Origin: Octopus sinensis
Taxonomy: Eukaryota
NCBI RefSeq assembly: GCF_006345805.1
Contig: NW_021835996.1
Coordinates: 310,001-374,000 of the forward strand
DNA length: 64,000 nucleotides
Direction of reading: 5' to 3'
Shown: piece after piece, positions 9,801 to 45,020 of the stretch
Layout: each line of letters begins with the position of its first letter
Numbering within the stretch: position 1 is the stretch's first letter
Notes under the pieces: generated by a model
Told to the model about the DNA's origin: nothing
The model's database searches: none
The model's input: only the letters and a program-made list of their open reading frames with translations
Position numbers and translations under genes: made by a program

Positions 9801-9985
9801 AGAGTGAGACCGTAGAATCAAACTCGAGAACAACCACAGAAATTGTCTGCCCTGTAAAATGGATAAATGTGTCTTTCAAAGACATTGGCTCGGGCTCGAA
9901 GAGGAAAAAAATCGACTGAAAGCAGACAAACTAATTTTATCCGGACTTTTCAATTTTGTTTTGAAACATAATTTAAATATTAAAG

Positions 9986-11100
9986 TCAGTAGTTAATGTG
10001 TCTAAGAAGACAACCAACAGCTCCAAAGTAACCCTTAAGTAGAGATAAGAATCAGGCACCTCATGTTTCAAGAAAAGTGCCTTAAGTGCAGTATTGGACC
10101 AGAATTCCAAAGAATTAGACAACTGCTGGAGAGCGAACTCGTTGATCCTCAGGAAATTGCCGACAAATACAATTCTATCGACTCCCTAAAATACATGACG
10201 AAAGTAGACTTGATTGACAGCACAAAGACGTGAAATAGAGGCCAGGTTGTTGCAAATCATAGTGAGAGTGGCGAGTGCAATATCCTCTCTCGTAGCTTGC
10301 TCCCTTGTAGAACTGTCGATCATATTGCCAAAACTATCGTGCGTGTAAGGAAATACCTGGAGGCCACTAAATAGCCAGGGAGATCCCACTCGACGTAGTC
10401 TCCACCATAAATGTCGCGGACAAGTTTGTCGACTCGACTGTTCTCGCCTCGGGCGGCCAAAGCAATGGCCTCCTCATAGTCGTGACAACCAATGAGAAGA
10501 GCACACAATCCTTGGAATGTACCGCCACCAAGTCTACTGGTATGTGTAAAATAAAATACCCAGAGCCACACACTCTCGAAAACTGATCCCTCGAATCCAC
10601 TCTCATAATGCTCACCCCCGAGCCCACATTGACCACTAAATACGGCCGGTGGTTGTCCAGGGAAACATAATGCTTATTGTAGTGGTAATCCAGGCAGTAG
10701 CACTCCCCTGATATGTCGTTCATGAAGTGCAGTCCTCGAATCACTGCTGTCAGCTCGTCCAGTCGCTCGAAGGAAGTCCCGATTGACTTGGATACTCTCA
10801 TTTGTGGATTACCTTCAACTCACTCTCAAACTTAAATGCTCCTCCGCCAGTACAGCACAAACCGTTCTCTATCCCCATCTGCCTCAAGACAGCAATTTTG
10901 TCAGGTAGTTCCGCAGTGGGGAATCGTATAAAGAGAAGTGACCCAGTCTGGTTGTTGAGTGTGACTTGAGCCACTTCTAAATGTTCTTCCACTTCGCAGC
11001 CCTCCACTCCCAAGAGTGTTTTGACGTGACCTGAGAGCGAAGGAGGAAGAAAACAGACCACTTTAGTGAGGGTTCCGCCCACGTCGATTCCACATTGCAT
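9986..11100 (-). CDS. PANK: Type II pantothenate kinase, multi-exon
   Basis: [73 protein letters not shown]; short GT-AG introns (e.g. 10034-10059, 26 nt). Confidence 0.92.
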
Positions 11101-13312: not shown

Positions 13313-14546
13313 TCAAGTCATATCAACAACAACTTTGCCTTTTACTCCCCCATTTCGTAGGTGATGGTAAGCTTTTGGGAGGTCCCTCATTCCAAAGACA
13401 GAATCAATCATTTGCTTCACCTTAAATACAGAACCAAAATAAAAACTTGAGCCTGCTCTACCATCCGACCAACAAAATCGAGGACCTTTACATCTGGCCT
13501 ATAAAATCCATAGACATATTTCTTTCTATCAGAAAATCTCCCCAACATGTCATAAAGCACTCCAAAGGTGCCAGAAATATCACCCGCGTCGATCTGGTCA
13601 AAAATACGAGAAGTAGTAGAGACAAGTCGAGCATTTCTGCTGAGTAAAATATGGCCAAGCAAGTCTTCATTTAACGTGGGAACAAAATTGAGAACAAGGT
13701 CATATCCATTCCCCGCCACTGAGTTAATTTTTATGAGGTAATCATCTTCATTTGAGTCAACGACAATGTTTGTCCCCAAAGATTCCACAAATGTGGCTGC
13801 ATGAGATCGACATGTCCCCACCACGACCGAATCTTTTGAAAGAATTCCTTTCAGATACTAATCAACTTAATAAACGAGTAGAAACTATAACAGCAAAGGA
13901 ACCAAGTCCTCCTGATGCCCCAAGAACAAGACAGCGAAGAGATCGGCCTTCTATATTCTTCACTCCAGCCTGATTTAAGCTGGCTAGGAGCGTATTGGCC
14001 ACAAATGGAAGTGCTGCTGCCTCGACGTGACTCAAGCAAACTGGTTGGGAAGAAAGCTATCAAATCAGATCTTATGAGAACTTTATCTTCGCTAACTCTT
14101 ACTATTGTGCTGTGAGTTCCCTGGCGTTGGAATATTCCTAAAGATCCCCACACGTCATCTCCAACTGAAAATTTATTACAGCCCTGGCCAGTGTCTATCA
14201 CTACTCCACTAAAGTCTCTTCCAGGGACAAAAGGAAATTCTTTTTCCGGAAATATTCGACCAATTGATTTGAGTCGACTAATTTTGGGCAGAACTGATCT
14301 TCCATATCCCTCTATTTTGTTGAGTTTGGAATTTAAACCAATCATCATTAGGTCGATGGGGTTCACACTGGCAGCTTTTATTCTTACAATTACGTCGTCC
14401 ATTCGTGTGATCGGAGGAATTTCTGTTTCACGCAATTTTAATGATTCAAATCCACCATATTCAGTTACGGACCATGATTTGTGAGAATTGTTCCTTTTTG
14501 TAAATTTGAGTAGATAAGTAATATTCCTTTTACAAACGGCCAACAT
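13313..14546 (-). CDS. RTN4IP1: Reticulon-4-interacting protein 1-like mitochondrial MDR oxidoreductase, 5 exons
   Basis: AASVNPID..GYG..EFPFVPGRDFSGVV, EAAALPFVA, LVLGASGGLG, C-terminal GKVVV; four 25-28 nt introns; basic N-terminal targeting-like peptide. Confidence 0.88.
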
Positions 14547-16407: not shown

Positions 16408-16881
16408 TTAACGATTAAATTTATTTCAAATCAAAAGAGAAATAGTCATTGGCAGATAGCCAGAGTATTGCCTCTGACTATTGCTATAGATATTCTTTCG
16501 ATTAAATACCGGTGCTCACACGGGTCGCCGGTAACCCTTTCGATTAATGAGGCAATACGCTGGAGTAGGGTCCGAGTAGAAGGCCCCTGTATTCCTGACG
16601 TCTCAACAGCCAGGGGGACAAACACTCTCCCATTCCCAATTCCAGCGTATTTCTCAGCTTTTCTTTTCTCAGTCCGTTCAGACGGGGCTCCAGGATTCTC
16701 GATGCATAATTTGATATTCTGATTAGAAAAGGAGTTCACACACGTGACGTCCCAAACCAGACACTTTCCCCTCTGGAATGGAAATGTAGTCATCCCATCG
16801 GGTCTTCTGCCGTCCTCTACGAAAATCCCTGCAGGTTCCAATTGTGTGTGGAATCCCGCAGTTCGAAGAAATCGACAGATG
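16408..16881 (-). mobile_element. 5'-truncated CRE-like non-LTR element
   Basis: EPAG..DGRRPDGMT.FPF..GK.LVWDVTC..VETSG..SIAIVRGN; candidate 10-bp TSD atctttattt at 16398-16407 and 16882-16891. Confidence 0.88.
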
Positions 16882-17109
16882 ATCTTTATTTAAAAACTAT
16901 TTTAATTCATGAAACATTTATGTTGAATGCTTAAAAAACTGATCAGCTGCAGATAAGAATGATGGGTTTTACAGGTCAATGGTAAAAAATATTAGATCAG
17001 AGTTTGATCATTAGAAATTAAAGCATGTTGAAAATATACAGAAAAAAATTATTCGAAAATTCCCGAATTAAATGGGACTATTCAGAACTTCAACTAATTT
17101 TCGAAAAAT

Positions 17110-26262: not shown

Positions 26263-27628
26263 CAGCGGTTCTCAAATGCGGCCCGCAGGATTTTTTTGCG
26301 GCCCCTCTAGAGTAACTAACTTTTTTAATTTTTTAATAATGTTAAAATTTAATTATTTATTGATCGTTCCAAAGATATAACCGAAAATAGTTTCGATCAA
26401 TTAATATGGCATCACTGCATAATTCACCAGGAAAATCTTATCGCCAAGTCCATTAAAATGGAACATGTTTCCAAAAAAGTCGTTAATATCGTTAATTGGA
26501 TACGCTCAAAAGCGCTCAATCACCGATATTTTAAATCTTTTTTGGAAGAAGTTGATGCTGAGTATGGAGATGTTATTTTTCATACTGAAGTGAGGTGGTT
26601 AAGTCGTTCGAAATGCCTTAATATTTTATTAAAGGTTCTATAAATTGCTTCCAGAAATTAAGGAGTTTACCAAAGACAAAGTAATTTCGATGAACTTTAC
26701 GATGAAAGATGGATTGCCGATTTGGCTTTTTATGTTGATTTAACCACGCATTTGTCGGATCTCAATGTTGAATTACAAGGAAAAGGCAAACTCTGTTATC
26801 AGTTATATGGATATATTTCTTCGTTTATCGAAAAATTATATTTATGGATGACTTCCCTTAAAGAGGGAGATACATCTCATTTTTATTCACTATCTGAAAA
26901 CAACGAAGGCGCTGCTTATGAAAAATACATATCCATAATTGGTGATTTAATTAATCAATTTGAAGCACGTTTTGGGGTACATTTATATAAATTTAATTTT
27001 TAGAATTTTAAAGAATTCCTTCTCTTAATGAAAATATTCGCAACTCCATTCAGCGTGGAAATTAAGGATGCGCCTGCAAAGTTTCAACTAGAACTCATTA
27101 ATTTACAACATGATATAGAACTGCGGCATTGTTCAAAAAAGCGTCCATTATTAATTTATACGAATTAATTCCTCAAGACAAATTCAAAAATATAACACAC
27201 AATGCATATATGAATATATCAATGTTTGGATCTACTATTTATGCGAATCAATATTTAGTAAAATGATTCGCATAAAAAATAAATATCGTAACAAACTCAC
27301 GGATAATCACTCGAGTCAGCTTTTACGAACTTCTTTGACTTTACTTATTCCGGATTTCAAAAACTTAATAAACAAATAATACTTTCTTTTTAGTTACAAA
27401 CGCCTTTTTTTAGATTTTTTAGCTTGTAATTCTTTATAAAGGAAATGGAAATTAAAAAAAAAACAGAGTCCAAAAACTCATTACGCATCAGCAGTGGCTG
27501 CACTTCGGATTGCAAGCGAGTTACCGGCTTGGAAAATATAAAAATATATAAAATATTTTTTGTGCGGCCCGCGAAGCTAATCTTAATTATCGATTTGGCC
27601 CTTGAGCTAAAAAGGTTGAGAACCCCTG
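26263..27628 (+). mobile_element. Internally deleted hAT (SPIN/GTF2IRD2-like) transposon
   Basis: TIR cagcggttctcaa / ttgagaacccctg; TSD atctagac at 26255-26262 and 27629-27636; HCIIHQE, HTEVRWLS, LNVELQGK; probable 27-nt intron 26977-27003. Confidence 0.92.
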
Positions 27629-27974
27629 ATCTAGACTGCTGATTGAGTCAAATGCTTTTATAAATAAAATTACAGTCTTACGCCCGTTTTGAACGCCAAG
27701 TGTTCCAAAACAGAGGTTGTTCCAAACACAGAGGTTGCTCCAAAAATTGTATGAAAATGTTTTATTATTGTGTACATAATTATACTTTGTTAATTGTAAA
27801 CCTGAGAATTCAACGGTAAACTAAAATTGTTTGAAATAATCAGCAATTTTTTGTTCACAGCTATATTTAAATTGCATATGAATTTTGTTCTAAACTAATA
27901 AAAATCTTTGAGACAATCTGGCAACATATTTAAAACGTTTCCCTCAAATTTATTTATGTTATCAATGCCTGTAG

Positions 27975-29185
27975 TTACGTAAGAAAAGGTGGTCATCCCA
28001 TCAGATCTTTTTCCATTTCCACGATCTAGGCCCACTAGCTCTAGCTCCTAGGGGAAGCCTGTTGATTCAGGAACTCGTACGACAACAATATTAACAGCGG
28101 AGTGCCGAGGAGCTCCCCCAGCACTTTGTTTGCAAGAGAGTGGGTGGAAACCTTTAACGTCAACCATTTTCAATATCTGCATTGATGTTGTTCCCAGATG
28201 TCAAGTCCGAGTCTCAAGGCGGTACCAATGTCTCAAGGTATCCTCTAATAATGTTCCGAGGTCAGCAATTGGCATAGCATTTAGCCATCTGGGGATTTAT
28301 GTAGAATCTCTAAGGATAGCCTTTGACAGAATGAGTGAAAGGACAGGAAAGCCAGGAGGGCAACGTACAGGGCAGATCTTAGGTCAGCTCCGCAGAATTA
28401 AGTAATAGTTTACATTACGTCCACTCAGTATTATCGAAACGAATGTTTAGGATCGATTCGGCATACAATCTTAACGTATTATTCAAAAGAATGCAATATT
28501 TCATTTTGTATATATCAGGGCGAGAATCTCAATAAGTATAATAGTTTGGAAACGTCAATGCAATTTTTGAAAATTAATAAAGCCATGAGAGAGTCAAATA
28601 GAAAGAAGCGTTTATAAAAACGGAACATTTCGACACTCTTAGCTTGGAGGTGGTTTTGCGAATTGCACTCTTCAAAAGGATACCCAAGAAAATTAATATC
28701 ATTAAAGTGTGTTTTTTTGTGCCTGCCAAGATTTCCGAAATTTTTATATTACTAAACCAAAATTTTGTGTTGAAAATGAGATATTTATGATCTCAGTTTT
28801 TTGGTATTAACTATCAGCCCTATTTTTTTCTGGACAGGAACAATTTTAAATAACTCATCCAAGACCATATTAGCAGGATTCCCAATAGTAGCATCGTCGA
28901 GGTACCAGAGGTTGAAAAGTGTCGTAAAATTACGAGTCACATCGTCGATAAACAGAGCAAATAGTAAGGATCCGAGAGGGTCACCTTGTTGGACTCCAGT
29001 CCAGGAACGGACGGTGTGCTTTTCAAAGACAAGCGAATTTCCAAACCCGTAAGCAAGTTGAGCCAGTCTCATGATCTCAGGCGTACGGCGCGAGCGCAAT
29101 TTCAACATACAGTTCCTCCTCAGACTGTTGAACGCGTTTTAGCCTCACTGCAAAGATATTCGGGGATTGTCTTGTATCGGCCCTA
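27975..29185 (-). mobile_element. Degenerate CRE-like non-LTR fragments (RT and RLE)
   Basis: NAFNSLRR, GVQQGDPLGSLLF, WYLDD at 28785-29150; GKRSDGMT near 28000. Confidence 0.75.
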
Positions 29186-29715
29186 ATTAATTGAATCTTC
29201 GTTTTGGAAAAAGTTTAACAATTTCAATTTTTTATCGTAGTTTAGGCTCATAAAACGTGAAGATAACAAGGAAAAAATGATCAAACAGAGAATACAAAAC
29301 TGAATTGTTTATTTTCTATATAAAAAACTCGTCACTAAATTAAAAGAAGAAGAGAAGGAAAAGGGAGAAGAACCAAACAAAACCAATAAAGCGAAATAAC
29401 CGAGTTTCTTTGCTGATTGGGGTTTAATCTGATAAATTTGTAATCGAATTTATTCTTTTTTAAGACAGATAGCGTCTTGCGGGTCCTAACCCTGCTTTAA
29501 TTTACTTTCCAACTTGATTATTTACCAATTTCATAGAAATATAAAAATTGAAATGATTTTAATTAATGTTGCTGATATAACCAAGAAATACATTTTCAGT
29601 GAGAAATGCTTCCGCTAGTAATTTCATCATTTATGGAAGATGATCACTTTCCAAATCATTTTCAACGTACACAAACCACTTAAGGCACCACTTAACAATC
29701 CTAATCGATCACAAC

Positions 29716-30640
29716 TTATTTATTTATTAGGACCAAAAACACCGTAATAACCATAATTAACTATTTCAGGTGATCCCAGCCTCTTTTAAAAACCTTCGCA
29801 TCTTTTCTCTGTGCTCTACAGCGCATTGTCTAAGAAGTCGGGGATCCCAAACATTGACTTTTTTCCTGAGGTCTCCCCCGTTTTCTTTCACGATTTCTTC
29901 TAGTCCTTTTGGTTAAATTTTGTTCCCCGTGACATCCGCTAAGAGGTTTACAATCTCCATTTGAATATTGTCGATTTTTTTGACATTTTTATATGCTAGA
30001 TTGCTTCCCCATACTGTACATCCGTAACCAATTGTCGGTTTAATGTATTGGGTGTATAGAGACTCTAATCCGTAAGTTCCTTTGGCGTCTTCCAAGTTTA
30101 CAAGAAATGCTTTAAGAAAGTTTAGTTTCTTATTGCATTTCGTCAACACGTTTTCCGTATGGGGAGTGAAGGTTAGAAAAATGTCAAAAATGATCCCTAG
30201 TATCTTTAGAGTTTTATTTTGAGGAATTGATTTCCCTTTCATGGTCACATTTATCGACAAATTTCCCAGTCTTTTGTTAGTTGTGAAAAAGGTTAGCTCA
30301 GAATTTTCTGGCTTTGCTTTCAACAGATTGGCATTGAACCATATACACAAGTTATTTATATTTTTCTGTAATCTTCTTGTAGCTTCGCTGACACATATAT
30401 CCTTCGATGCAACGATTATATCATCCGCATATGTAGTAAAATGCCATTCTTGTTTTCAGAAAGAGCCATATCGTTCAACATTAGGTTGAATAATACGGGG
30501 GATAGAGGGGAACCTTGTGGCACTCCATTCGGTAGTAGTCTTGATGCAGATCTTCGATTGCCCTTGTAGACTCTACCCCGACGTCCATTCAAAAAATTGT
30601 TAAGCCATAGTTTTAAATTTGGTTTCATATTCAATGAGTA
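29716..30640 (-). mobile_element. 5'-truncated LINE (RT domain to 3' end)
   Basis: GVPQGSPLSPVLFN, YADD, KILGIIFD, YTQYIKPTIGYG, ends EAGIT*; (TAAA)n-like tail near 29716. Confidence 0.85.
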
Positions 30641-30644
30641 AATT

Positions 30645-30721
30645 TAAACTCATAGTTGTTTGTTGAAACAGACCCTCCACAATAGCTAGGTCGCGGTGAG
30701 CGAAGCGAGCTGCCGAGCTAG
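30645..30721 (+). mobile_element. Solo Helitron 3' end
   Basis: Near-identical to about 38010-38086, ending gcgaagcgagctgccgagCTAG followed by T. Confidence 0.85.
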
Positions 30722-31719
30722 TTTTAAATAATATTGTTTGTGATGTCTGGAAAACGTGTTAAAAGATGTAGAAAATTTATCCAAGAAAATCGTGTATTTT
30801 TTTGAATTTCAAAAGTAACAACATATTCCGAAAAATCTTTGTTTAAAAAACGTGTCGGCAAGTATTTTAATCTTTAATGTGTTTTCCTTTTCCTTATAAA
30901 ATTCCAGAACTATTTTGTAGAAGAACAAACAAAATTTTTTGGCCAAATGTGACAAAATCTAGATTAAATTGTAACAAAATAGAATGTGAAGCACGCATAA
31001 TTTTTCAAATATCAAATATTTGTTAGATTAATTGATTTAAAATAGTCACTTCCACGGGAAAAATTATAAGGACCATGATTATTAAGACGAAATTTCTTGT
31101 AATGTCTATTGTTGTAAGTCCGATATACTAAATATAGTCAAATAAAAATGTTTATACTCATAAGTTATGAGTCATAACACATATTATGGCCGCAACAAAA
31201 AATGATATCAGGAATGACAAAATGATTGTAATTTGAGGAATGGCTGACTAATAATTACAAGAGTAAAATGTAAAATTTACAGAGGTATGTGTGGTTTTAA
31301 TTTCATAAATTAAATGATAAAATTCCTTATTTCCTTCTGGTAAAGTGAATTTCACAACAATCTTTATATTGCCAGTTTTATTTGTTAATATTTGCCCGAT
31401 TTCTAAATTGTAAAATCAAATAAATACTATTGGTCGTTTCACTACATGAATCCTCGATGCACAAATTGCACGAACTGAAGTTATTTGATCTTGTATCAAT
31501 GGAAAATTGGAGAACATTTTTGCGCATAATAAAACGAACTTTTTTGAGAATAAACGAAAAATCTAAATATAGAAAAGAATTCAAGCGACTACTAAATGAA
31601 ATGGTTTCGTTTAAAATTTTTATTGTATATTTTGATGAAAACTTTCTTATCTGGGACGATGCAACATTGTAAATTATATTTGGTTTTACACGCGTAAATC
31701 CAATTTTATTATTAAACTT

Positions 31720-32814
31720 TGTCACCGGTTTTATAGCCCACTGGGTTGGATAACCCACCTACTGCCATATTTTATAATAATAATATTTTTCATATATTTA
31801 ATTTCATTGGAAAAAATGATTTTCTTAATTATTTTAATAATTTATTGTTCTTTTTTTAACTATTTTAGCGTGAAAACTATAACTTTTTATTAATAAAGTT
31901 TAAAAACTGTGAAAATAAGTAGGGTTGTTCAATAAGTTCAATTAGAATATGGTTCTTTTGAAATTAACGACAAACCAACTTAATGAAATAAAAAATTTTG
32001 ATGACACCACTACTATATTCGATAAAGAGAAAAGGAGAAGGCTCAGGACGCTTAAAAATCGTTTTTGCTTTAAAGTTCCTGAAAGAACGTATATAAAAGT
32101 CGGAAATAAAAAACTGCGTTTTTTTACTCTAGAAGAAAGTGAGCTAAAGTTAAAAATTATTGAGGTATCTATTTCAAAACAATTGAAGATCGAGCATATG
32201 AATACTCATTTTGGTAGAGACCACATGAAACTACCAAATGGGCGCCCTTCAAAATTTTTATGGGGGATAAAAGAGATTCGGAGCTGGAGAGAAAATGAAA
32301 AAACGTCGTAAGTGGAAATATGACGCAGAAGACATTGAAATTAGAGATACAGTGCTGCTGAAACACGACAGGGATGATAACCCTGGTAACCGGAGATACC
32401 CATTATATGACGAACTGGATATAAATAAGTACACAGTTTCAGAAAAATTTGAAACTACGTGTACTATTAATAAAGAAAAATTTGAAACTACGTGTAGATA
32501 ATGGAGAATCAGTATCCACCGTTCATTTTAGTAGATTAAAAAAAATTTGATTAAAATTTTGATTTTTTTAAAGAATTAATTCTTATTTTTTATTGACTCC
32601 CATTAAATAAATAAAATTTTATTTATTTAAAAAATGTAAAGCACAAATTAATGATGTGTGATTTATGCAACATGCAGAAATATAAAAACTAATAAAAAAG
32701 AAGAAAATCATAGTTAATTATATTTTCTGATGATTTTTAGATTATATTTATATTTTTTTGGTAGTTTTTTCGATGGTGGGTTATCCAACCCGGTGGGCTA
32801 TAAAACCGGTGACA
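31720..32814 (+). mobile_element. Ginger-like (integrase-type) DNA transposon, internally deleted
   Basis: 40-bp TIRs with 1 mismatch (31720-31759 / 32775-32814), TGT..ACA termini, 5-bp TSD aactt; integrase zinc-finger half EHMNTHFGRDH; catalytic core deleted. Confidence 0.8.
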
Positions 32815-33085
32815 AACTTTATTATATAAAATTACTAAAATCACCATAAATATATGTTCCATTGACTTAATTTCTGGGTCATGTTTCCTATTAAAACAAA
32901 AAGAATATAAGCGAAAATTTTTGTTCAACATGTAATTCGCATAAGGAACTTCTAAATTATGTTAAATATTTTTTATTAGTAACCTTGATACCACAGTTTA
33001 ATTTTTAAAGTGTTAGAGCAATTAAGTACAATGTTATTTGTTTGATTTTGGATAATTTGAAAAAAATCTCACGAATTAAAAAATA

Positions 33086-34642
33086 CAGTAGACTATCCAT
33101 TTAACGAAAAAAAATTTAACGAAAATATTCATTTTACGAAAGTCAAAATATTTTTTACGTTTTTCCTTAGATAAATTCAAAAATAAAAATTTTTTTTCTT
33201 TGTATTAGTGAATATTTAAATATATTTAACGAATATTTAAATAACGAAAATTAAAATTTTGATAAAATTTTAAAATAATTTTTCCTCGCTATTTCTTTGT
33301 AGTAAACCATGTGTACAAGGGTGAACAATATGAAGAAAAAGAAAAACTTATCAAATTCAACAAAAACTGGAAGTTATTGATTTCAAGAAGAATAATCCTG
33401 CTGTTACTCAAGAAAATTTGGCTCAGCGGTTTAATATGCCTATTGGAGTGATCAATTCAACGTTGAAGAAAATGCAATTGTATGGATCAAGGCGTCACAA
33501 ACAAAAAAAGATTACATTTAAAAGTTGTACTGATAAGATATGAACCACTATATGCATGGATTCAGAACAAACGTTTCTGTAATCACACCATAACTAATGA
33601 AATGGTACGCGAAATGGCACTCAAAATTGCTCAAAGATTTTATATTGAAAATTTCAAAGCATCTCACCCATGGATTTCACGCTTTAAGGAAGAGTATGGA
33701 AGGAGATAAAGAGCATCCGTTGGTAATCGGAAAATTCAAAAATCCTCATGGTTTTAAAAATATTAATATGAATAATCTTGGGATTCAATATGCAAATAGC
33801 AATAAATCTTGGATGACCAGTTTAATTTTTAAAAACTGGGTTGAACGGTTAAATTCCAAAATGAGTGTGGAAAATAGAAAGATTTTGCTTCTTTTATATA
33901 ATGCGCCAGTTCACTATTTTGATGGCGAATTCAGTAATATCGAGTTGTATTTTCTTCCTCCAAAGACAACATCTAAGATTCAACCAATTGATCAAGGGAT
34001 TGTGCATTCATTTAAATCGTTGTATAAAAAAGGAATGACTAGAAATTTGAGTATGGGAACAAATATAGGAACATTGTCATATACAGATGAACTTACCAAA
34101 TTCAAATTAGTGAATGCTCTACCTTTAATTATTGAGGCTTGGAACGAAGTCACAGTGGACACTATCAAAAATTGCTTCAACAAGGCATTAAATAATTGGG
34201 CGAAGATAGATGAAAAAATACTTGAAGAATCCACTGACGAAAAAGGTATTAAATTTAAATCACCTTACAATTAGAGATAATAAAAGTGAAATTATGATTG
34301 AGTTTCCTGTCTGTGCACCTGTCGTCTGCGAAGAAAACGCGTATCTTGATACAATACAATGTGAGGAAGAAAATGAGCATGAAGAAATAGATAGCACAAA
34401 TGACAATCCCATTGGTTATGCAGATGCACTTAAATATTTGGAAAATATTGAAAAATATTTTTTGCAAGAATCTGGTGAACATATTCACCTAATTACAAAT
34501 TTGAGAAATATATTGGCAAAAATTAAAAAGAAAGAACCTAAAATTACCGATTACATGACACATTTTTAATTAAACAATTTTTTTCGTTAAATTCATTTAA
34601 CGAATGCTCAATTTTCATTTTCGTTAAATGAATAGTCTACTG
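33086..34642 (+). mobile_element. pogo/Tigger transposon, defective
   Basis: 25-bp TIR cagtagactat(c/t)catttaacgaaaa, TA flanks; CENP-B-like HTH (FKASHPWISRFK), PLVIGK, SWMTS, LLLYNAPVH (catalytic D to Y), QPIDQG; frameshifts and a deletion removing the first catalytic D. Confidence 0.92.
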
Positions 34643-35873
34643 TATATACTTTTTAATGTACACTCATTTTGAATTGTATTTGGAATTAAAGAGAGGTTTG
34701 ATAAAAATATTGCTTCCTTTCGAGAATTGTTAAAACTATATATCTGAGATGCAAGAGTTGCAAAAAAGCACAACACTGGGAGAACCATTAAACTACGTTA
34801 TTAAATAACTATTATGTATATCATTTAACGTCGTAATCATCCAATTTGGATAAAAAGTTTATCACATACTTATTTTTTTAAAACAAAATTTTTTATTATA
34901 ACAAATGAATTTTAATGATTTGATGGGCAAAAAATGACCGAATTGTGAAGAAGCTTGGCTCTTCGCAATTATCGGAGGGACCATTATGTGGGGCGATAAC
35001 ACAGGAAGAGGTTGAAAGGGCAATTGCTGGGTTGAAGAACAAGACGCCTGGCTTCGACTACATCCCTCCGAAGTTGTTAAAGAAGGCCCCTGAAATCTTG
35101 ATACGAGCATTGACTATGTTGTTTCACGCCAGCTGGACGTTCGGGCACCTTCCATCGGCGTGGAAGCATACGATTGTTCGAATGATTCCAAAATCTGGTA
35201 AATCGACACTGCTGGCACAGAACTACCGGCCAATTAGCCTCATTTGTGCTTTCTCTAAGACAGGGGTCACCAAACTTTTTGCACTCGCGGGCCGGATTGA
35301 CCCCAACACAATGAACGCGGGCCGGAGCACGTGCATAGGATTATAATTTTACTAGAAATTCATAAGTGTGTTTTTTACAATAAAAACTAATTTAAACAAA
35401 AATAAAGTAAACAAAAATTTTAATGAGAGCTATGGAACTGTGATCTTTTTTTGTATAAGTTCATCAATATTTGGTTTTAAATTGCTGCATCCTATCATGA
35501 GAATTGATTTTAAGTGTCCGTCAGTCAATCTTGCACGATGGGCAGACTTAACATATTTCATCCTAGAAAACGTTTGCTCACATTGGTAAGTTGTGCCAAA
35601 TATAGAAATCATCTTTATCGCAAAATTCTTTAGTCTCGGAAACTCATCATCCTTGAGATATTCGTAGAACTCAGCGAGTTTGGTCCGTCTGTGACAATCT
35701 TTGAGCTGTTCATTTGATTGTAAGTCAATAACTTCTAATTGTAATTCATGTTGAACATTTTCAACATTACAAGAAAATGGATTTTCGAACAAAATTATAT
35801 CGCTTTCAATTTTGTCAAGTTCAGAAAACTTATGTAAAAAATGATGTTTTAATCTTAATAATAAAATGGTATG

Positions 35874-35938
35874 GTGTGTGTCTGTCTGTGTGTCTGTCTG
35901 TCTGTGTGTCTGTCTGTCTGTCTGTCTGTCTGTGTGTG
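35874..35938. repeat. (GTCT)n/(GT)n microsatellite near the Helitron 5' end
   Basis: gtgtgtgtctgtctgtgtgtctgtctg... starting about 20 bp inside the 5' TC. Confidence 0.9.
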
Positions 35939-35964
35939 CACACCAACTTCAAATTGGCAATACG

Positions 35965-36954
35965 ATGTCCTCGACTTACATGATGAGGTCCTTAAAACCT
36001 TCCCCCCCAAAAAAATTAAAAAAAAATTTTCTGCATTTTGGTTAAAATGAACAACTACAATGTCCTCGACTTACATGATGAAGTCCTTAAAACCTTCCCC
36101 CCCAAAAAAATTAAAAAAAATTTTCTGCATTTTGGTTAAAATGAACAACTACAATGTCCTCGACTTACATGATGAAGTCCTTAAAACCTTCCCCCCCAAA
36201 AAAAATTAAAAAAAAATTTTCTGCATTTTGGTTAAAATGAACAACTACAATGTCCTCGACTTACATGATGAGGTCCTTAAAACCTTCCCCCCAAAAAAAA
36301 TTAAAAAAAAATTTTCTGCATTTTGGTTAAAATGAACAACTACAATGTCCTCGACTTACATGATGAAGTCCTTAAAACCTTCCCCCCCAAAAAAAATTAA
36401 AAAAAAATTTTCTGCATTTTGGTTAAAATGAACAACTACAATGTCCTCGACTTACATGATGAAGTCCTTAAAACCTTCCCCCCCAAAAAAAATTAAAAAA
36501 AAATTTTCTGCATTTTGGTTAAAATGAACAACTACAATGTCCTCGACTTACATGATGAAGTCCTTAAAACCTTCCCCCCCAAAAAAAATTAAAAAAAAAA
36601 TTTCTGCATTTTGGTTAAAATGAACAACTACAATGTCCTCGACTTACATGATGAAGTCCTTAAAACCTTCCCCCCCAAAAAAATTAAAAAAAAATTTTCT
36701 GCATTTTGGTTAAAATGAACAACTACAATGTCCTCAACTTACATGATGAAGTCCTTAAAACCTTCCCCCCCAAAAAAATTAAAAAAAATTTTCTGCATTT
36801 TGGTTAAAATGAACAACTACAATGTCCTCGACTTACATGATGAAGTCCTTAAAACCTTCCCCCCCAAAAAATCAAAAAATTATTTTCTGCATTTTGATTA
36901 AAATGAACAACGCGAATGTCCTCGACATTCATGATGAGGTCCATTAAAACCTTC
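35965..36954. repeat. Tandem array of a 94-96 bp unit, 10 full copies plus 1 partial, inside the Helitron
   Basis: Unit tgtcctcgacttacatgatga(a/g)gtccttaaaacctt(C)n(A)ntt(A)nttttctgcattttggttaaaatgaacaactacaa starts at 35966, 36061, 36155, 36251, 36346, 36442, 36538, 36634, 36729, 36823, 36917. Confidence 0.97.
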
Positions 36955-37164
36955 AAGGCAAAAATCTCACGTATTAAGAATATCCTTGATGAAAACGACA
37001 GCGAGAATATTAACAATGATGAACTCCCAATTATTCGCGATAAAGAAATTCAATTCATCCTATGTTTTTCTCTTTAAAATTAAATGCATATATCATTATC
37101 GACCATGAATCAAAATTAAAGCTATTATCATATTTGACTTTGACAGAATGTGCAATCACAGATT

Positions 37165-37630
37165 GCACGACTTTGAATAGAGTGTGCAATTAACAGATTT
37201 TGAAAAACCACTTTGATAGTTGAAACCAGATTAGCACAATCATTAACACAATTTACCACCAATTGACGCACGACCTTGAATAGAGTGTGCAATTAACTGA
37301 TTTTGAAAAACACTTTGATAGTTGAAACCACATTAGCACAATCATTAACACAATTTACCACCAATTGACAGCGCAATCAGAAGAATTTGCGTAAAAATAT
37401 TAGCTATTTAGTTAAGTTTTTCGTGAAGATAGAATTTATTTTCGGTATGCCTCTTTTCCTAAATTTTTTTATTATTCAAAATAATTTTTTCAATAGATAA
37501 CCGAAAGAGGGAAGACGACCTTAAGAAAAGAAGTTTTTCGTAAAGATAGAATTTATTTTCTGTATGCCTCTTTTTTCCTAATATTTTTTATTATTCAAAA
37601 ATAATTTTTTAAATAGATAACCGAAGGAGG
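37165..37630. repeat. Two further two-copy duplications inside the Helitron
   Basis: About 102-bp units at 37165 and 37268; about 100-bp units at 37414 and 37531. Confidence 0.85.
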
Positions 37631-37656
37631 AAAAATGAAGCTGAAGAAAGATGGCT

Positions 37657-37974
37657 AACGTAATAGAGGCGACGATATTAACAGGTAAGTATTGAGGTGA
37701 GGATGTTTATATTCCACGAATTCCGATAATTTCTGATGAATTACCATTTAGATTTAAAAGGCTGCAATTTCCTTTGAGGATGAGTTTTGCAATGACAATA
37801 AACAAGGCCCAGGGACAGTCATTAAAGGTAGTTGGGTTATTTTTAGAGAGTGAGTGCTTTTCACATGGACAGCTGTATGTGGGATGCTCGAGGGTAGGCA
37901 GAAGAGAAAATTTATTCATATATGCCAAGGAAGGACGGACGACAAACATCGTTTATCAACAGGCGATAGAATAG
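37657..37974 (+). pseudogene. Helitron Pif1-like helicase C-terminal fragment
   Basis: IEATILTG..IPRIP..LPFRFKRLQFPLRMSFAMTINKAQGQSL..FSHGQLYVGCSRV..TTNIVY. Confidence 0.92.
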
Positions 37975-40900
37975 GGTTACATTAAACCAGGTAGTTTTAT
38001 ACATCTACATAAACTTATAGTTGTTTGATGAAACAGGCCCTCCGCAGGAGCTAGGTCGCGGTGAGCGAAGCGAGCTGCCGAGCTAGTTCTTTGATAATTC
38101 CAATTTGGAAAGTAATGTCGATCTCATTACAGTTTGCCTCACAAAAACTTTTAAAACAAGAAAAGTGTGAAAACTGACGTACTCCAAGTTGTGACTCGAA
38201 TAACATCAATTTTTGTCGAAATGCTTTAATTATCCTGTAGAAATCACAAATTAAGTTTTCCTTTCCTTGTAATTTCAGATTTAGCTCATTCATGTGAGTT
38301 GTAACATCAACCAAAAATGATAATTTTGATAGCCAAGCAAGATCTGATAATTCGGGATAATAGTTATTTTTACTGGTTAGAAAAATATCAATCTCACTTC
38401 GGAGTTTATAAAATCTATTTAATACATTACCACAGCTAAGCCATCTAACTGCAGTGTAATATGGTAAGTCAAAATATTCAGATCCAAAATCGTCAAGTAA
38501 AACTTTAAACTGACGGTGATTAAGTGAGCTCCCTCGAACAAAGTTTATTATGCGAATAACTGGATTCAACACACATGAAATATTAAGAGCCTTCGCACAT
38601 AGTGCGTGCTGATGAAGGATGCAATGAATGAACAAAGTGTTTGAAATATGTAATTCCTCCAATTTATTAGTTATTTGCCCAACTAGACCCTTTTTAGAAC
38701 CAGCCATATTCTTTGCCCCGTCAATCGTAACACAACTCAGTTTCTCCCATTCAAGGTTATAGTCACTTATAGTTTGTTCCAATTCATCAAAAATATCTTT
38801 TCCAGTGGTTGTTCCATGAATAGAACAAACAGATGCCAGTTCTTCAGTTATGGAAATATTCTCATCAACTCCACGAATAAAAATAAGAAGTTGCGATGTT
38901 CCCGAAATGTCAACTGACTCATCCAATGCAAGAGAATACCACAACATATTACTTGTCTTTTCACAAATTTGTAAATATATATTTTTTCCAAGCTCTTCAG
39001 TTCTCCGTGATACAGAACTCGCCGACAAACTTATTCCATCAAATAAGGAAGAATTTAGTGGGCACAAACAATTAACTGCTTCAATAATGCAATTTTTGAT
39101 ATACATCCAATCACTAAAGGGTTTCCCGTGTTGTGAAATAATTTTCGTTATCTCGTATCCAGCTCTTGTTACATTTTCATTATTTTCAAAATTTTTTTTA
39201 TAAGGCCTTGTTGAATTTGTAAAGTGCGTTTCAGTGATTCAACTTTATCCTCACGTAGCTTTCCAGTGTACTTGGAATATATCGGAGCATGATTCGTTTC
39301 ATAATGACGTCGAATGTTATACTCCTTCATAACAGAGAGATGTTCGTGGCATATTAAACAATAAGCTTTCTGCTTTAATTCATCTTTCGCAAAAAAATAC
39401 TTCAATTCCCATAATTTATTGAATACACGGCATTCGCGGTCAACTTTTCTTTTCATATTAGACATAGCAACAAAGAAAAATTTAACGTTAATGCTGATAA
39501 GTTTTTTTTCGAATTAAATCTTGCAAAATAGTTTTATTTAAGTTAATTATTAAGGTATTAATTGAATATCTCGAAATAGTGCGCGGGCCGGATCCGGCCC
39601 GCGGGCCGTAGTTTGGTGACGTCTGCTCTAAGACAATGGAAAAGATTGTCTTTAACAGACTCTCTGGTCATATAGAGTCACAAAATTTGCTTTTACCCGA
39701 ACAATGGGGATTTCGTGGAGGAAGATCCACAGGGGACTGCCTCAGGGAATTAGAGCACCAATTATCCCGTGCTGACAGAAATGAAGCATGGCTAACTGTG
39801 GTGTGTCTGGATCTGGCCAAAGCCTTCGATAGGGTGTGGCACCTGGGCCTACTCTCCAGAATCCATGACATCGGAGCCGGGATAAAGACCTATCGATGGC
39901 TGGAGAGCTTCTTGTCAGGAAGACAATCATTTGTCCGCTGTGGAAACCGCCTATCGGGGTGTGTGGAACTTAGAAGGGGAGTCCCGCAGGGATCTATCTT
40001 GAGTCCACTTCTGTTCAACCTCTTCTTGGCGGACATTCCTCTGCCGTCGACACGTACTGGCAAGCTCGTTATCTATGCTGACGATATCCTGGTCATGGAT
40101 ACCTCGAAAAGGATATCGCAGTCTTGGAGACGACTGAAATCATACATTGCAACGCTAAAGATGTGGACTATAGAGAAGGGTTTGACCCTAGCACCGGAGA
40201 AGAGCACCATTTCATGGTTGCGGAGAGGGAGTCGCTATGCGGAGTCGTGTGCATATGCGATGAGTAGCTATGTGATGGATCTCCCGAAAAGCAAAAATCT
40301 TTCTTACCTGGGAGCAACCATCAACTGTCGTGGCTCGTACGTAGAGCATATAGCAAATCAGAGAAAGAGGAGTGTGAGGATCCTCAAAAGCTTAACCAGG
40401 TTCCATCTGGATCCGGAAACGTACATCTACGTATACAAAACGTGTGTGCAGCCAGTCCTCACATATGGCTACGAGGGCTGGTACGGTACGGAGGAGAGTG
40501 ACTACCTGATCGAACAGTTGGAAAAGACAAGACGTTTCGCTATGAAATTGGCTTACGGAGTACAACTTGACGGAAGGTTAAAAGACTCACAAGAATCCTC
40601 TGTGCCCACGATCCGGATGGTCTTGGAGAATTGTCGTCAAACATGACTAGTATTGGGGATACGCATGGAAAGAGACACTTCGGTGCCTTGTTTTTATCTC
40701 CCCGCCGATGATTTCTTCCTTGTTTTTCTTTTTCTTTTCGCTCAATAAACACTATTCTATTCTATGGGCAAAAAATGGTCTTTATCGAAATATTTTTTTG
40801 ATAAGAATTAAAACCGCACTTAAATTGCAATCATCTGATTTGATTTTAATTTCGAATTTATAAATATATTCATATATTTTAGCTCCATTCCTCTGTAGAA

Positions 40901-42259
40901 TATCTCTTGGCAGCCCCAATAAGATCCACTATCTTATATTCTGTTTTTTGTCTACTCTGAGGCGGCTCTTCGAGACTTGAGACCAGTCCTTCGAATAGAA
41001 AAAAACTACGATTGCTTTTGCAGATGATATCCAACAATAAAGAAAAGCTCAAGGTCCTAATTTAGAAGATAACAGAGAAGCTGTTAGATTGGTCACTAAA
41101 TGTGAACATAGAAAGAACAGAGATCACGAAGCTGATTAAAAAAAGACCATACTAAGAAACCAAGGCGCAAAAACAAGAAACTGGACTCTCTCCTTATTGA
41201 ATCAGATAATATTACAAGAAGTAAAATCCATACTTACACAACACTCAAAAACAGGAGAAGACCTGGCTTGCTCGCAGAGGATTTACGATTAGGATTTTAC
41301 GTACAAATGAGAGTTAGCAAAATTTTCAGTATGAACTCACATTGTTTTGTACGAACCACGCTTCAGAGGCTGTGCAAAGAAAATATTTCCGGATTTCCTT
41401 GACGAAAACCTTAAAAGCATTGTGAACCACCTTGAAAGCAAAAAAGGCGGTTTGGGATAGAACGAAATGGAGAAACCTGTCCAGAGATTTGATTTATTGT
41501 GTTGCACATTCTTCGTCATCGCCATTGAAATCCTTAGTGCTATTAATACTTGTTTACATCCCCCGCGGTTTTCCTGTCTATCAAACAAGAGAAACCGTTT
41601 TTTGTGTAGACAAAGATCTAGAAGTGTCTTCTTTATTTCATAATCTACAAGGTTTTTGTACGTAACAGGAGGGTTTTGTAGTTAATTGGAGGTCGTTTGT
41701 CTTAAAAATTTTCTCGGCTTAAAACATTATACTCTTGACAATGCATACAGGATTTGAATTTTAAGAGTTTAAGAATCTTAAAAATAAACATTAAACGCTT
41801 TTTGAGTTTTATTTCAGTAAAGACATGGCGTAACAAACTGAATGTTTTTTAAATCAATATTTCGCTCTTGTAAATATTTATTGTTGCATTTTTCTAAATA
41901 AATGAAAGGAGAAAAAATACAGGCGTAGGCAAACTAAATCCGACAGAGGGAGTACTGCCTTGTTTTTAATAAAAAAATTGAATTCAATGATATTTTTTCA
42001 ATAAAGACGGATTCAAGTCTGCATGTGTAATTTTTTATAAAAAGTTACCGTGTTCAGGAAATATAATATAAAATGTCACTTTCAAATCAAGCACAACGGA
42101 ATGTACGGCCTGCGATCAACAAAATTTATCCACCTTCACTTTAATACGACGTTATAAACCTAATAAATCAGATTAATTATTTGTCGGTTTTATTGTATTT
42201 ATGGTAAGTAACCCACAGTTTTTTGTTTCTCATAAAATGATTACCCAGTCCCAGGTATG

Positions 42260-42400
42260 TGGCTTCCTGCTGATAAAGAGAAACACAGTAATCCCGTCTG
42301 GTCTCTTCCCGTCCCCCCGATCGATCCCAGTGGGTTCGATTATTAAGGAGATTTTGGCGACTTTTAAGGCTTTAGAGCAGCGTGCCGCGGAATACGACCA
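42260..42400 (-). mobile_element. CRE-like fragment
   Basis: EPTGIDRGDGKRPDGIT on the minus strand. Confidence 0.7.
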
Positions 42401-42607
42401 GCGTTGTATCTACATGATAGCGCGTGCAGATCAAAGCGACAATTGGTTAATTGTGCCTAGAAACTTTCATTTAATGATTTAAGTTTTCAAATAAGACAGT
42501 TTATAAGGAAAGAAGTTTGTGCGTAATTTGATTTCATCTAAATATGAATATCCCGAAAAAGTTATCTTTTTTATATTTTCAAAGAACTTTAATCTAAAAA
42601 TAATTAA

Positions 42608-43810
42608 TGGGATCACAATTTTTCCATTTGAAGAGGGGAAATCCCTAGTCTGGGACGCAACCTGTGTGGACACTCTCTGTCCTTCCAACATTGTCGGGAG
42701 CGCAGTGTACAGACTGTATGCCGCGGAAAAAACGATGAGGGCAAATGAGGGAAAATATGAAGCTCTGCGAGACCGATTCGTGTTCTGTCTGATTGTGGTC
42801 GAGACAACTGGAGGAATAAGTGGGAAATCGTTTCGCTTCCTAAAGAAGCTTGGACGCTTAGCCACATTAAAAAGCCACGACACACGTGAGACCCGGTGGC
42901 TTCTCCAGTTGATCTCCGTTGCTATCGTGAGAGCCTCTCACGATTTAATTAAAAGGAGAATTGATCATGAAGTGATTACTCTACATTGTATTATTCACCA
43001 AGAAGCACTATCTGCGCAAACGTTTCCGTAAGAAATTTTAGAAGTGATGGAATTGGTCATAAAAATGCTCTTTTGTATATGAAGGAATCTTTCAATGACA
43101 GGTTAAAAATGAATGTTTAAATATAAAAAGGTTTAAGGATTTTAGAAAAGAAAAGGCAACTTTATTGTTCGTTATAAACCCTCCATGGCTAAAGTCAGCA
43201 CTTTAAATTTATTCCCATTTGAAATTAACGCAGCTGAGTTCGAAATGCAGCTATTGGACTTGACATGTAAAAAATTATGGGCATCAAAGTTTATTCGCCT
43301 TTCAGAATTACTTGAAACCTTGGAACAGAAACATTTTCTGGTAAAATTAAAAATGATATTAATGCTATACAAAAGAAACTTGAAGATGTGATTTTCGAAA
43401 CTTGGAATTATCTTCCAGATTCTTATTATGAATTAAAAAAATTTGCAGACGGAATTTTGACAATATTCGGGTCCATTTATATGTGTGAACAAAGTTTTTC
43501 TCATATGAATTATATAAAATCGAAATTACGGAACAAAATTACAGATTCGAATTTGGAATCTTACCTCAGATTAAAATTAACAACTTACGACCCAGACATT
43601 AACCAACTCTCCAAAGAAATGAGGAATCACATTTCTCATTAATGTGTCTAATTAATTTAATTTCTTAAAATGAATTCTTAATTATTTTTTAAATTAATTT
43701 TTCGAAATTTCCAAAAATGTTCAAAATTGGCTCTTCTCCAAAAGTATTTGCCGACCCCCGGTGAGAGGCAACGCAACGTCAATAATGTTGGTGGGGTCCA
43801 CTTCGGATAG
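42608..43810 (+). mobile_element. CRE-like 3' fragment split by a hAT remnant (pieces 42608-42933 and 43761-43810)
   Basis: GITIFPFEEGKSLVWDATC..SVAIVR resumes after the hAT end as VRGNATSIMLVGSTSD*. Confidence 0.85.
42945..43760 (+). mobile_element. hAT transposon remnant lacking its left end
   Basis: HCIIHQEAL, TIFGSIYMCEQSFSHMNYIKSKLR..HISH*; right TIR tttgccgacccccg followed by target gtgagagg. Confidence 0.85.
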
Positions 43811-43812
43811 AT

Positions 43813-45020
43813 CAGTGGTTCTCAACCTTTTTTGTCCGCGGATCCCTTGTGAGTAAATGAAAAATTTCGCGGACCCCCTACATATTTATTAAGTTTTTTG
43901 TCAAAAAAATTTTACTTATCTAAAAACAAAATTTATTATTAAATCAATAGAGAAAATTAGTGAGAAGGTTGATATTGTTTTTTCGAGGCAATTTTTTCAA
44001 TAAGAGGCTCGGTTGTCGACAAGCAAACCCTGATGTCATCTTCAATATTCAGTCTTGCGCGATGATTATTTTTTATATTGAGAAGTGCTGAGAAGCCATG
44101 TTCGCATAAATATGTTGTCGGGAATATAAGCAACAAATTTAATGCATTTGCGCTTACGGAAGGATAATGCTTACACATTTCGCACCAAAATCTTGATGAA
44201 GCAAGTTTTTCATACAAATCTCTTGCGTTTGAATTATTGATCATGTCAATAAAAGCCTCTTCGATATTTTCATCGACCAAACGTGGATCAACACTGAATG
44301 GTGTACGAATGAATTTCAAATCAATTTTGTTCAATTCTGGAAAGTATTTATTTACTTCTTGTTGAAGATATGTTAAATGTGCATAAATAAGTTCGGTTAT
44401 TTTGTTGATTTCAAATGCATCTATATTTACAGATTGTTCTTCAAAAGATTCAAACATAGTAAAATTATTTAGTTTTATTTTTTCTTTCCACAGTGTTAAC
44501 TTCATCAAAAAAGCACTAACAATTAATATGAAACAGTTAACAAACTTAATTTTATCCACAAAATCAATTATTGTTTCATGTCTTCCCTGAAGCGATTTGT
44601 TGAGTGAATTTATACGAGAGAAGACATCTCTCAAGTAAGCAAGTTTAGATAGCCATGAACTATCCATTAATTTCGAAATAAATTCCGATGATTTAGAATT
44701 GTTTTCGCGAATAAAATATTCAGATAATTCATTCCTCAAAGAAAAAACTCTGGCAAGAATGTTTCCCCGAGATAGCCATCTCACCTCAGTGTGGAATAAC
44801 AAAGCCTTTCCATCCTTTTCAAATTCCTCGCAAATAAGTCTGAAAATGCGCGAATTTAAAGCACTCTTTTTAATATAATTTATGATATGTACGACATCAC
44901 CGAGAACATATCTTAAATCTGAAGGTAATGTTTTTGCAGCAAGTGCATAGCGATGTAGCATACAATGCATATGTTTCGTTTCCTGGTTAGCAAGTCTAAC
45001 TTGGCTGCCAGACATAGCTG
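43813..45020 (-). mobile_element. Buster-type hAT (ZBED5/SCAND3-like), 5'-truncated
   Basis: TIR cagtggttctcaacc at 43813 after ggatagat; HCMLHRYAL, HTEVRWLSRG, LAYLRDVF, FPTTYLCEHGFS, QPSH*; probable 30-nt intron 44516-44545. Confidence 0.9.

Follow-up and report, generated by a model that had tools for sequence, protein, structure and literature searches.

Short introns are known in the transposon Tc1, and introns also occur in Ac and Tol2. Among the closest described systems, Ginger1 transposons have 1–4 introns, while none are listed for Ginger2 in the part of that account considered here (Bao et al. 2010, PMC2836005). In CACTA transposases, intron loss prevails and one gain was inferred; the same source cites a localized gain in the Mariner-like elements of grasses, and the proposal that elements transfer horizontally more easily once introns are lost (Buchmann et al. 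2014, PMC4158355). Predicted introns are also recorded for the open reading frames (ORFs) of the Paramecium Tc1/mariner elements Sardine, Thon and Anchois, which are named in a supplement legend (Arnaiz et al. 2012, PMC3464196), and mammalian domesticated transposon genes gained introns, scored against an intronless transposon ancestor (PMC3257199). Here, we analyse four segments of 24–31 nt, bounded by GT and AG, in the transposase genes of DNA transposons in a stretch of 64,000 nt (the window) from the Octopus sinensis assembly GCF_006345805.1 (contig NW_021835996.1, here C12467:310001-374000). These segments and their counterparts in related families are probably ordinary spliceosomal introns that were gained one by one in the transposase genes of this lineage and passed on during the later diversification of the families.

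As in Ginger1, an integrase-type transposase is split by GT-AG introns at positions shared by related families. However, the Ginger element in the window fits Ginger2/Tdd, with a 5 bp AT-rich target site duplication (TSD) and not CCGG, and the introns here are 21–38 nt. Intron positions follow transposase clades, as they do in the CACTA and Mariner-like elements, but single gains are described there, whereas about 31 clade-restricted positions are found here in one genome and two superfamilies, with further calls in pogo elements. Judged by the mention in that legend, Paramecium is likewise a host with tiny introns whose transposons have introns predicted in their ORFs. Dicyemids and myxobolid myxozoans share host introns of <30 nt (PMC13644364, PMC6736024), but what is described there are introns of host genes and not of transposases. 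The transposase of the P element, which is regulated by splicing (PMC4158355), also needs the removal of an intron, its third. However, tissue-specific retention has been shown for P, and nothing of this kind was seen here. The domesticated genes are single-copy host genes, whereas the elements here are multicopy, have terminal inverted repeats (TIRs) and TSDs, and have spread recently.

Our literature search, with most subscription journals and Repbase outside its scope, found no work on micro-introns in dicyemid or myxozoan transposases and none on mobile Buster or SPIN elements gaining introns. Nothing on transposase introns was found in the parts of PMC13085455 and PMC9942856 considered. 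Introns in Paramecium long interspersed nuclear elements (LINEs) were not confirmed, as the term is absent from the main text of PMC5405496. An earlier note, made from the letters of the window, had put forward a candidate for an undescribed system. That goes too far, as transposase introns and their gain and loss are already in print, though the scale and small size seen here were not met in this search.

Four short segments in the transposases of the window

The elements and segments are listed below in order of position.

26263..27628, + strand: hAT element a, non-autonomous, bounded by TIRs, with only the C-terminal half of the transposase
26977..27003, + strand: micro-intron a, 27 nt, phase 0, GT..AG, with an in-frame TAG at its end
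31720..32814, + strand: Ginger2-type element c, 1095 bp after an internal deletion (about 1846 bp at full length)
32165..32188, + strand: micro-intron c, 24 nt, phase 0, GT..AG, in frame, stop-free, before the zinc-finger His
33086..34642, + strand: pogo/Tigger-type element d, 1557 bp after the internal loss of about 240 bp (about 1800 bp at full length)
34246..34276, + strand: likely micro-intron d, 31 nt, GT..AG, joining the DDE exon to the C-terminal tail
35261..39625, − strand: intronless SPIN-like hAT, with an insertion at about 35863–38086
43813..45005, − strand: Buster-type hAT element b, 5′-truncated (full-length copies about 2.3 kb)
44516..44545, − strand: micro-intron b, 30 nt, phase 2, GT..AG, in frame, stop-free

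The window copies of elements a to d are deletion derivatives or truncated, not whole elements. The four segments, in three transposase superfamilies, have GT..AG ends at the coordinates given in the earlier note, and all four are fixed in their families. The lengths and landmarks it gave for a (27 nt, ending in an in-frame TAG), b (30 nt) and c (24 nt, just before the zinc-finger His) agree with the sequence, and the feature proved wider than it had claimed. As for U2-type introns, removal restores an ORF without a gap relative to homologs for a, b and c, and for d it restores the frame only. The expected exact gaps bounded by GT and AG were found at a, b and c (9, 10 and 8 residues, respectively). 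We are confident that a, b and c are introns, and consider that d is probably one too.

Segment a is a 27 nt GT-AG segment in 25 of 28 scorable junctions. Among 56 outside homologs examined, 19 could not be scored, and relative to all 37 others segment a is an exact gap; the RF..PF spacing in these is 19 residues, as in the spliced form of element a, against 28 in the unspliced form. Two related families have an intron at the same site with different sequences (27 and 28 nt), and the three families form one clade (FastTree). The transposase falls with the GTF2IRD2-like set (best identity 41 %) and is of the GTF2IRD2/SPIN type. hAT elements of the Buster/SPIN type have 8 bp TSDs with a TA-centred pattern, and 14 of the 15 TIR-to-TIR copies of element a, all 1350–1387 bp, are flanked by an 8 bp TSD. 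No full-length parent was found among the genome matches (best 40 candidates scored).

Of the 119 database proteins that could be scored at site b, 112 are shorter by exactly 10 residues. Element b has short TIRs and an 8 bp TSD in 11 of 12 copies, which fits hAT. Its transposase is homologous to the ZBED5/FAM200 type and 57 % identical to the database protein P0002, and its Pfam hAT matches fall under the curated cut-offs. Full-length copies have a second micro-intron upstream, of 26, 28 or 31 nt depending on the subfamily, with GT-AG in 9/9. The ratio of non-synonymous to synonymous substitution (dN/dS) in the spliced ORF between two b subfamilies is 0.25 (359 codons) and 0.23 (333 codons), and 5 of the 26 inner bases of the 30 nt segment differ, closer to the synonymous (pS, 0.24–0.29) than to the non-synonymous (pN, 0.07–0.08) proportion. 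Both b sites are common to two sister families, the one corresponding to segment b being 28 nt in the sister, and one family has a third intron (FastTree). At 43295–43639 (+) the window also contains a piece of another hAT family, a longer copy of which, elsewhere, has three micro-intron calls.

Segment c has GT-AG in 17/17 junctions, and four full-length homologs, one of them from the same organism, have nothing opposite its 8 residues. Full-length c elements have four segments (24, 23, 23–24 and 26 nt), and the internal deletion in the window copy took out three further micro-introns (21–26 nt). The longest ORF of full-length c is 202 amino acids unspliced and 420 amino acids with all four removed, which leaves no insertion relative to homologs at these sites; among the 16 combinations of removals, ORFs of >310 amino acids are found only where the last three are removed. 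Site c is occupied in 7 families by segments of 24–26 nt with unrelated sequences.

Ginger2/Tdd elements are defined by TGTNR termini, TIRs and a 4 or 5 bp AT-rich TSD (PMC2836005). Element c has TGTCA termini with TIRs, a 5 bp duplication in 10 of 11 rows and a 4 bp duplication in one (by eye), and lacks the 4 bp CCGG/CCGT TSD of Ginger1. An H2C2 zinc finger and DDE core are present, without YPYY and GPY/F (alignment read by eye), and the homologs of c carry PF00665, with PF17921 in 3/5. Judged by termini, TSD and domains alone, element c appears to fit Ginger2/Tdd. A non-autonomous c subfamily (L079, L080, L085, L087–L090) contains a foreign internal piece, and the translation of this piece resembles (by eye) short retroelement-like ORFs at 1802–2200, 16446–16889 and 42507–43031 of the window.

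Element d has a TA duplication in 17 of 18 copies and matches Pfam DDE_1 (PF03184; E=3e-34). For segment d, the earlier note gave 29–31 nt. The 31 nt form restores the frame into the tail and the 29 nt form does not, so that only the former stands. In 22 of 31 copies the segment ends in TAAAG, which allows the 31 nt acceptor only, and in the other nine, including the window copy, it ends in TAGAG. We note that the TAGAG variant (34272–34276 of the window) has an additional AG, 2 nt before the acceptor that restores the frame, and use of this competing AG would give the wrong frame. The tail is coding, as other pogo families in the genome run in a single frame from the core into a similar tail. 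However, d, supported by frame restoration, is the weakest of the four, as frame-restoring AT-rich GT..AG segments are expected by chance at 21–42 of 347 positions of the d coding sequence (6–12 %). Pogo families in the same genome share no intron position with d. Several pogo clusters have calls of 24–25 nt, which are based on a single reference and less secure.

Probable transposase micro-introns across the genome

The survey covered about 1.9 Mb, made up of a 1.46 Mb stitched sample and 123 loci, using tblastn and clustering at 90 %. Regions of <300 bp were dropped, leaving 26 Ginger-like, 31 hAT and 18 pogo clusters, many of them fragments. One best copy from each Ginger and hAT cluster was aligned using a purpose-written spliced aligner. 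This yielded 74 calls, of which 67 were 20–38 nt long, at 31 positions in 30 of the 57 hAT and Ginger clusters. Among the longer clusters, 12/17 Ginger and 9/13 hAT clusters have at least one call. The reverse-transcriptase ORFs of LINEs, used as a control, gave 4 calls in 20,361 aligned residues (59 of 60 clusters), against 4 and 5 for false signals, compared to 67 calls in 16,005 residues for the transposases. LINE ORFs are at background, and this control is cleaner than the test with different signal pairs described below.

Host introns were predicted by a gene finder with a flat intron length prior (15–150 nt), run on the unmasked part of the 1.46 Mb. It returned 82 models with 496 predicted introns, of which 258 were 20–35 nt long with a peak at 23–26 nt. 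A peak at 22–29 nt appeared only with GT-AG; three false splice signals placed 56/332, 66/397 and 102/436 introns in the 20–35 nt range without a comparable peak. A count of donor-acceptor spacings gave only a noisy excess, at 21–30 nt. The median length of the transposable element (TE) introns, 26 nt, equals the predicted host median of 26 nt (Mann–Whitney, p=0.37), and the host size ascribed to the segments by the earlier note was therefore correct. The database models P0001 and P0121 read through micro-introns (10 and 9 extra residues, respectively), and such transposases are therefore mis-annotated.

That the segments are not introns at all, but fixed insertions in dead families or errors in a long-read assembly, is the least probable explanation and can almost be set aside. 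Homopolymer frameshifts are found in many copies, and the chance frequency given above for d-like segments would also fit it, but the same position is occupied by different sequences of different lengths in up to 7 families, both flanks are under purifying selection (dN/dS between distant families is saturated or based on few codons), and the LINE ORFs of the same assembly show only the background rate.

Not all families have introns. The SPIN-like element at 35261..39625 is intronless, as the earlier note observed, and so is a full-length copy elsewhere. This family, with 18 matches at 100 % identity and 40/41 at ≥97 %, is the youngest burst tested. An intronless Ginger lineage persists across 68–99 % identity. 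The best outside identity is 62 % for the intronless SPIN-like family (F46) and 57 % for b, which has two introns. Hence, the simple rule that intronless families are newly arrived was not upheld, and no simple relation between intron presence and family age emerged.

These families bear on two functional proposals. If introns helped transposase mRNA to pass as host mRNA, raising expression or lowering silencing, they could have been selected. This would agree with the high proportion of longer clusters with calls, and with the finding of no precise loss of a segment in any copy among 162 junctions (a few loci overlap, so that some copies were counted twice). However, the youngest burst and a long host gene in the window are intronless, and in a fungal transposon family the intronless Glomhoppers are more highly expressed (PMC13465315). 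With the persistence of the intronless Ginger lineage as well, this suggestion of the earlier note found no support, and we consider it very unlikely. Its other suggestion, a splicing-dependent switch, would have at least some introns retained in certain cells or stages, silencing the transposase as in the P element. P and Ac/Ds are regulated by splicing (PMC4158355), retention of 60 of the 67 TE introns would disrupt the ORF, four Ginger positions have persisted through deep divergence, and TE splice-site scores are below those of the host. On the other hand, disruption of the ORF is to be expected whenever an intron is retained, b and c keep the frame and contain no stop, no internal motif was evident by eye at shared positions, where the sequences have turned over, and intronless families, the youngest burst among them, coexist with the others. 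A switch was thus also unsupported and is improbable, if slightly less so. A comparison of stop-free introns of length 3n (TE 7/67, host 2/271) was rejected as a test, since the gene finder takes introns of that kind for coding sequence.

Intron positions and their origin

The 31 positions comprise 17 in Ginger, 9 of them shared, and 14 in hAT, 5 of them shared; these 14 shared positions are each found in at least two related families, with unrelated intron sequences. Four positions, occupied by introns of 22–38 nt with unrelated sequences, are common to a group of eight Ginger families (found in 7, 7, 6 and 6 of them; the copies include partial and deleted ones). Other Ginger clades have other positions, and one clade, made up of four families, is free of them (IQ-TREE, 28 rows). 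Divergence within the four-position clade is deep, and its synonymous sites are saturated. When 163 outside proteins were added to the hAT tree, which has local supports only and several long branches, the b pair kept its place as sister of P0002 and P0006, and the a clade remained separate. The outside sisters of the b families lack the gap, and the b families are nested among many more such proteins. Clusters of the nearest relatives of b (P0002 and P0004) include decapod-labelled proteins as well as 599 amino acid proteins on contigs of 59–447 kb. The 57 % identity of b to its outside relatives is too low to call a recent transfer. No Buster relatives were found in viral contigs, and prokaryote genomes yielded one distant locus (32 % identity). 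A nearly complete hAT transposase (L269:1553-3233) on a contig filed as a gammaproteobacterial metagenome-assembled genome is likely to be eukaryotic contamination.

Outside Ginger loci L265–L267 have no short introns. A Ginger2-like element on a metagenome contig (L264:219-2135) has five (31, 256, 28, 44 and 36 nt). None is at any of the four shared Ginger sites, although one lies 8 nt from a shared site. As the introns of L264 are at positions of their own, it is likely that the same transposon group picked up introns independently in a second short-intron host.

The introns could instead be older than the entry of the elements into this host and have shrunk to host size, their relatives elsewhere having lost them or having been recorded from RNA. 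The conserved positions of the 1–4 introns in Ginger1 genes, the predominance of loss in CACTA transposases, the depth and saturation of the four-position Ginger clade and the L264 intron 8 nt off a shared site are all in keeping with this. However, each of the 31 positions is limited to one clade, the b clade is nested among many gap-free outside proteins, including those of 599 amino acids on long contigs, and L264 has no exact shared position. We therefore consider an older origin unlikely, though less so than either functional proposal. The earlier note had allowed for introns being gained or shrunk; gain is upheld by the clade-specific positions and the outside relatives without introns, and shrinkage fits less well. 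On these comparisons, gains at many clade-specific sites are a simpler account than an ancestor rich in introns, which almost every outside relative would have had to lose.

Gain within this lineage could operate as follows. If a short AT-rich insertion can be taken out by the spliceosome of the host, the transposase would stay intact, and the insertion would for that reason be nearly neutral. Because these elements copy through DNA by cut-and-paste, the intron would pass to every daughter copy, whereas retroelements would lose introns via their RNA stage. The length would stay at 21–38 nt because that is the size the host splices, and the sequence would drift except at the splice sites.

Several points weigh against gain of ordinary host-type introns. 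TE introns are more AT-rich than the predicted host introns (0.83 versus 0.68) and score lower on the host splice matrix (median 0.98 versus 2.39), and a few single-family calls, with AT of 0.59–0.68, are doubtful. The host introns themselves are ab initio predictions by our own model. When 14 signal pairs were used in the aligner, GT-AG had the largest total gain (1320), but false A/T signals also scored well (AA-TT 935 and TT-AA 722), since false signals can flank a genuine AT-rich insert. The outside homologs are protein records, and that their genes are uninterrupted is judged from proteins of full length found on unannotated contigs, whether short or long; uninterrupted ORFs were seen in DNA for distant loci only. 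For the Ginger positions, the outside comparison is limited to three proteins and four loci. The number of introns is no simple measure of residence time, given the outside identities of F46 and b. No source of the inserts was identified, and the junction repeats resemble those of the host. Introners, which are self-copying introns, would appear as many near-identical introns at unrelated sites; in the calls inspected by eye, which was not a genome-wide search, no sequence recurred between positions, and old gains would have decayed. An origin by tandem duplication was unsupported by the junction repeats.

The host and what the introns may mean

The assembly comprises 2.72 Gb in 13,516 contigs, and the window is gene-dense with a GC content of about 35 %. 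The GC content of the sampled sequence is 34–37 %, and 46 % of it was self-masked. For six transposon queries, no match listed among the best 40 candidates for each was on a contig numbered below C49 or beyond 0.89 Mb, and the contigs appear to derive from a second organism within the larger assembly. Near-identical proteins in the protein database carry an octopus label, and octopus kidneys are the habitat of dicyemids. Intron size, GC content, repeat share and the octopus-labelled proteins make it likely that the host, whose genome is compact, is a tiny dicyemid-like parasite assembled together with the octopus. Introns of <30 nt in animals are reported only for myxobolids and Dicyema (PMC13644364), and in D. 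japonicum the GC content is 36.7 %, repeats make up 49 % and introns average 38 bp (PMC6736024).

Two ab initio host gene models in the window are as follows.

9973..11100, − strand: predicted introns of 26, 26, 53 and 24 nt; presumably pantothenate kinase-like, from its sequence
13313..14546, − strand: predicted introns of 25, 28 and 26 nt; presumably oxidoreductase-like

Amid intron-rich genes, the window also encodes an intronless helicase of about 700 amino acids with DEAD_2 and Helicase_C_2 domains (23176–25266, +), which we take to be DDX11-like. A second DDX11-like exon, 50 % identical to the window helicase, lies at 11.9 Mb on C13, where it stands by itself within 3.1 kb. Upstream of the window, four transposon fragments occur in the same order at about 212–230 kb and 244–261 kb of C12467 (L134–L139), repeated about 31 kb apart, due to either a segmental duplication or an assembly repeat.

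A bolder extension, which we put forward tentatively and regard as possible but doubtful, is that this lineage keeps inserting micro-introns into its resident DNA transposons, in some 30 independent gains from a known intronless ancestral state, and that each gain acts as a host lock, a one-way valve against horizontal escape, because introns of <30 nt are thought to be unspliceable in most animals. If so, elements could enter this host but their horizontal exit would be blocked, and a limit on host range is predicted.

Few intron gains are clear, since it is seldom known what the ancestral state was. Here, a single genome has about 31 micro-introns, each specific to a clade, in multicopy transposases whose outside relatives appear to be uninterrupted; some of these introns are old and others are limited to one family. 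The rate, site preference and source of intron gain become testable in such a system, which shows an animal's shortest introns when new. If, as seems likely, the introns were gained here, these elements would hold a rare natural record of how new introns arise.

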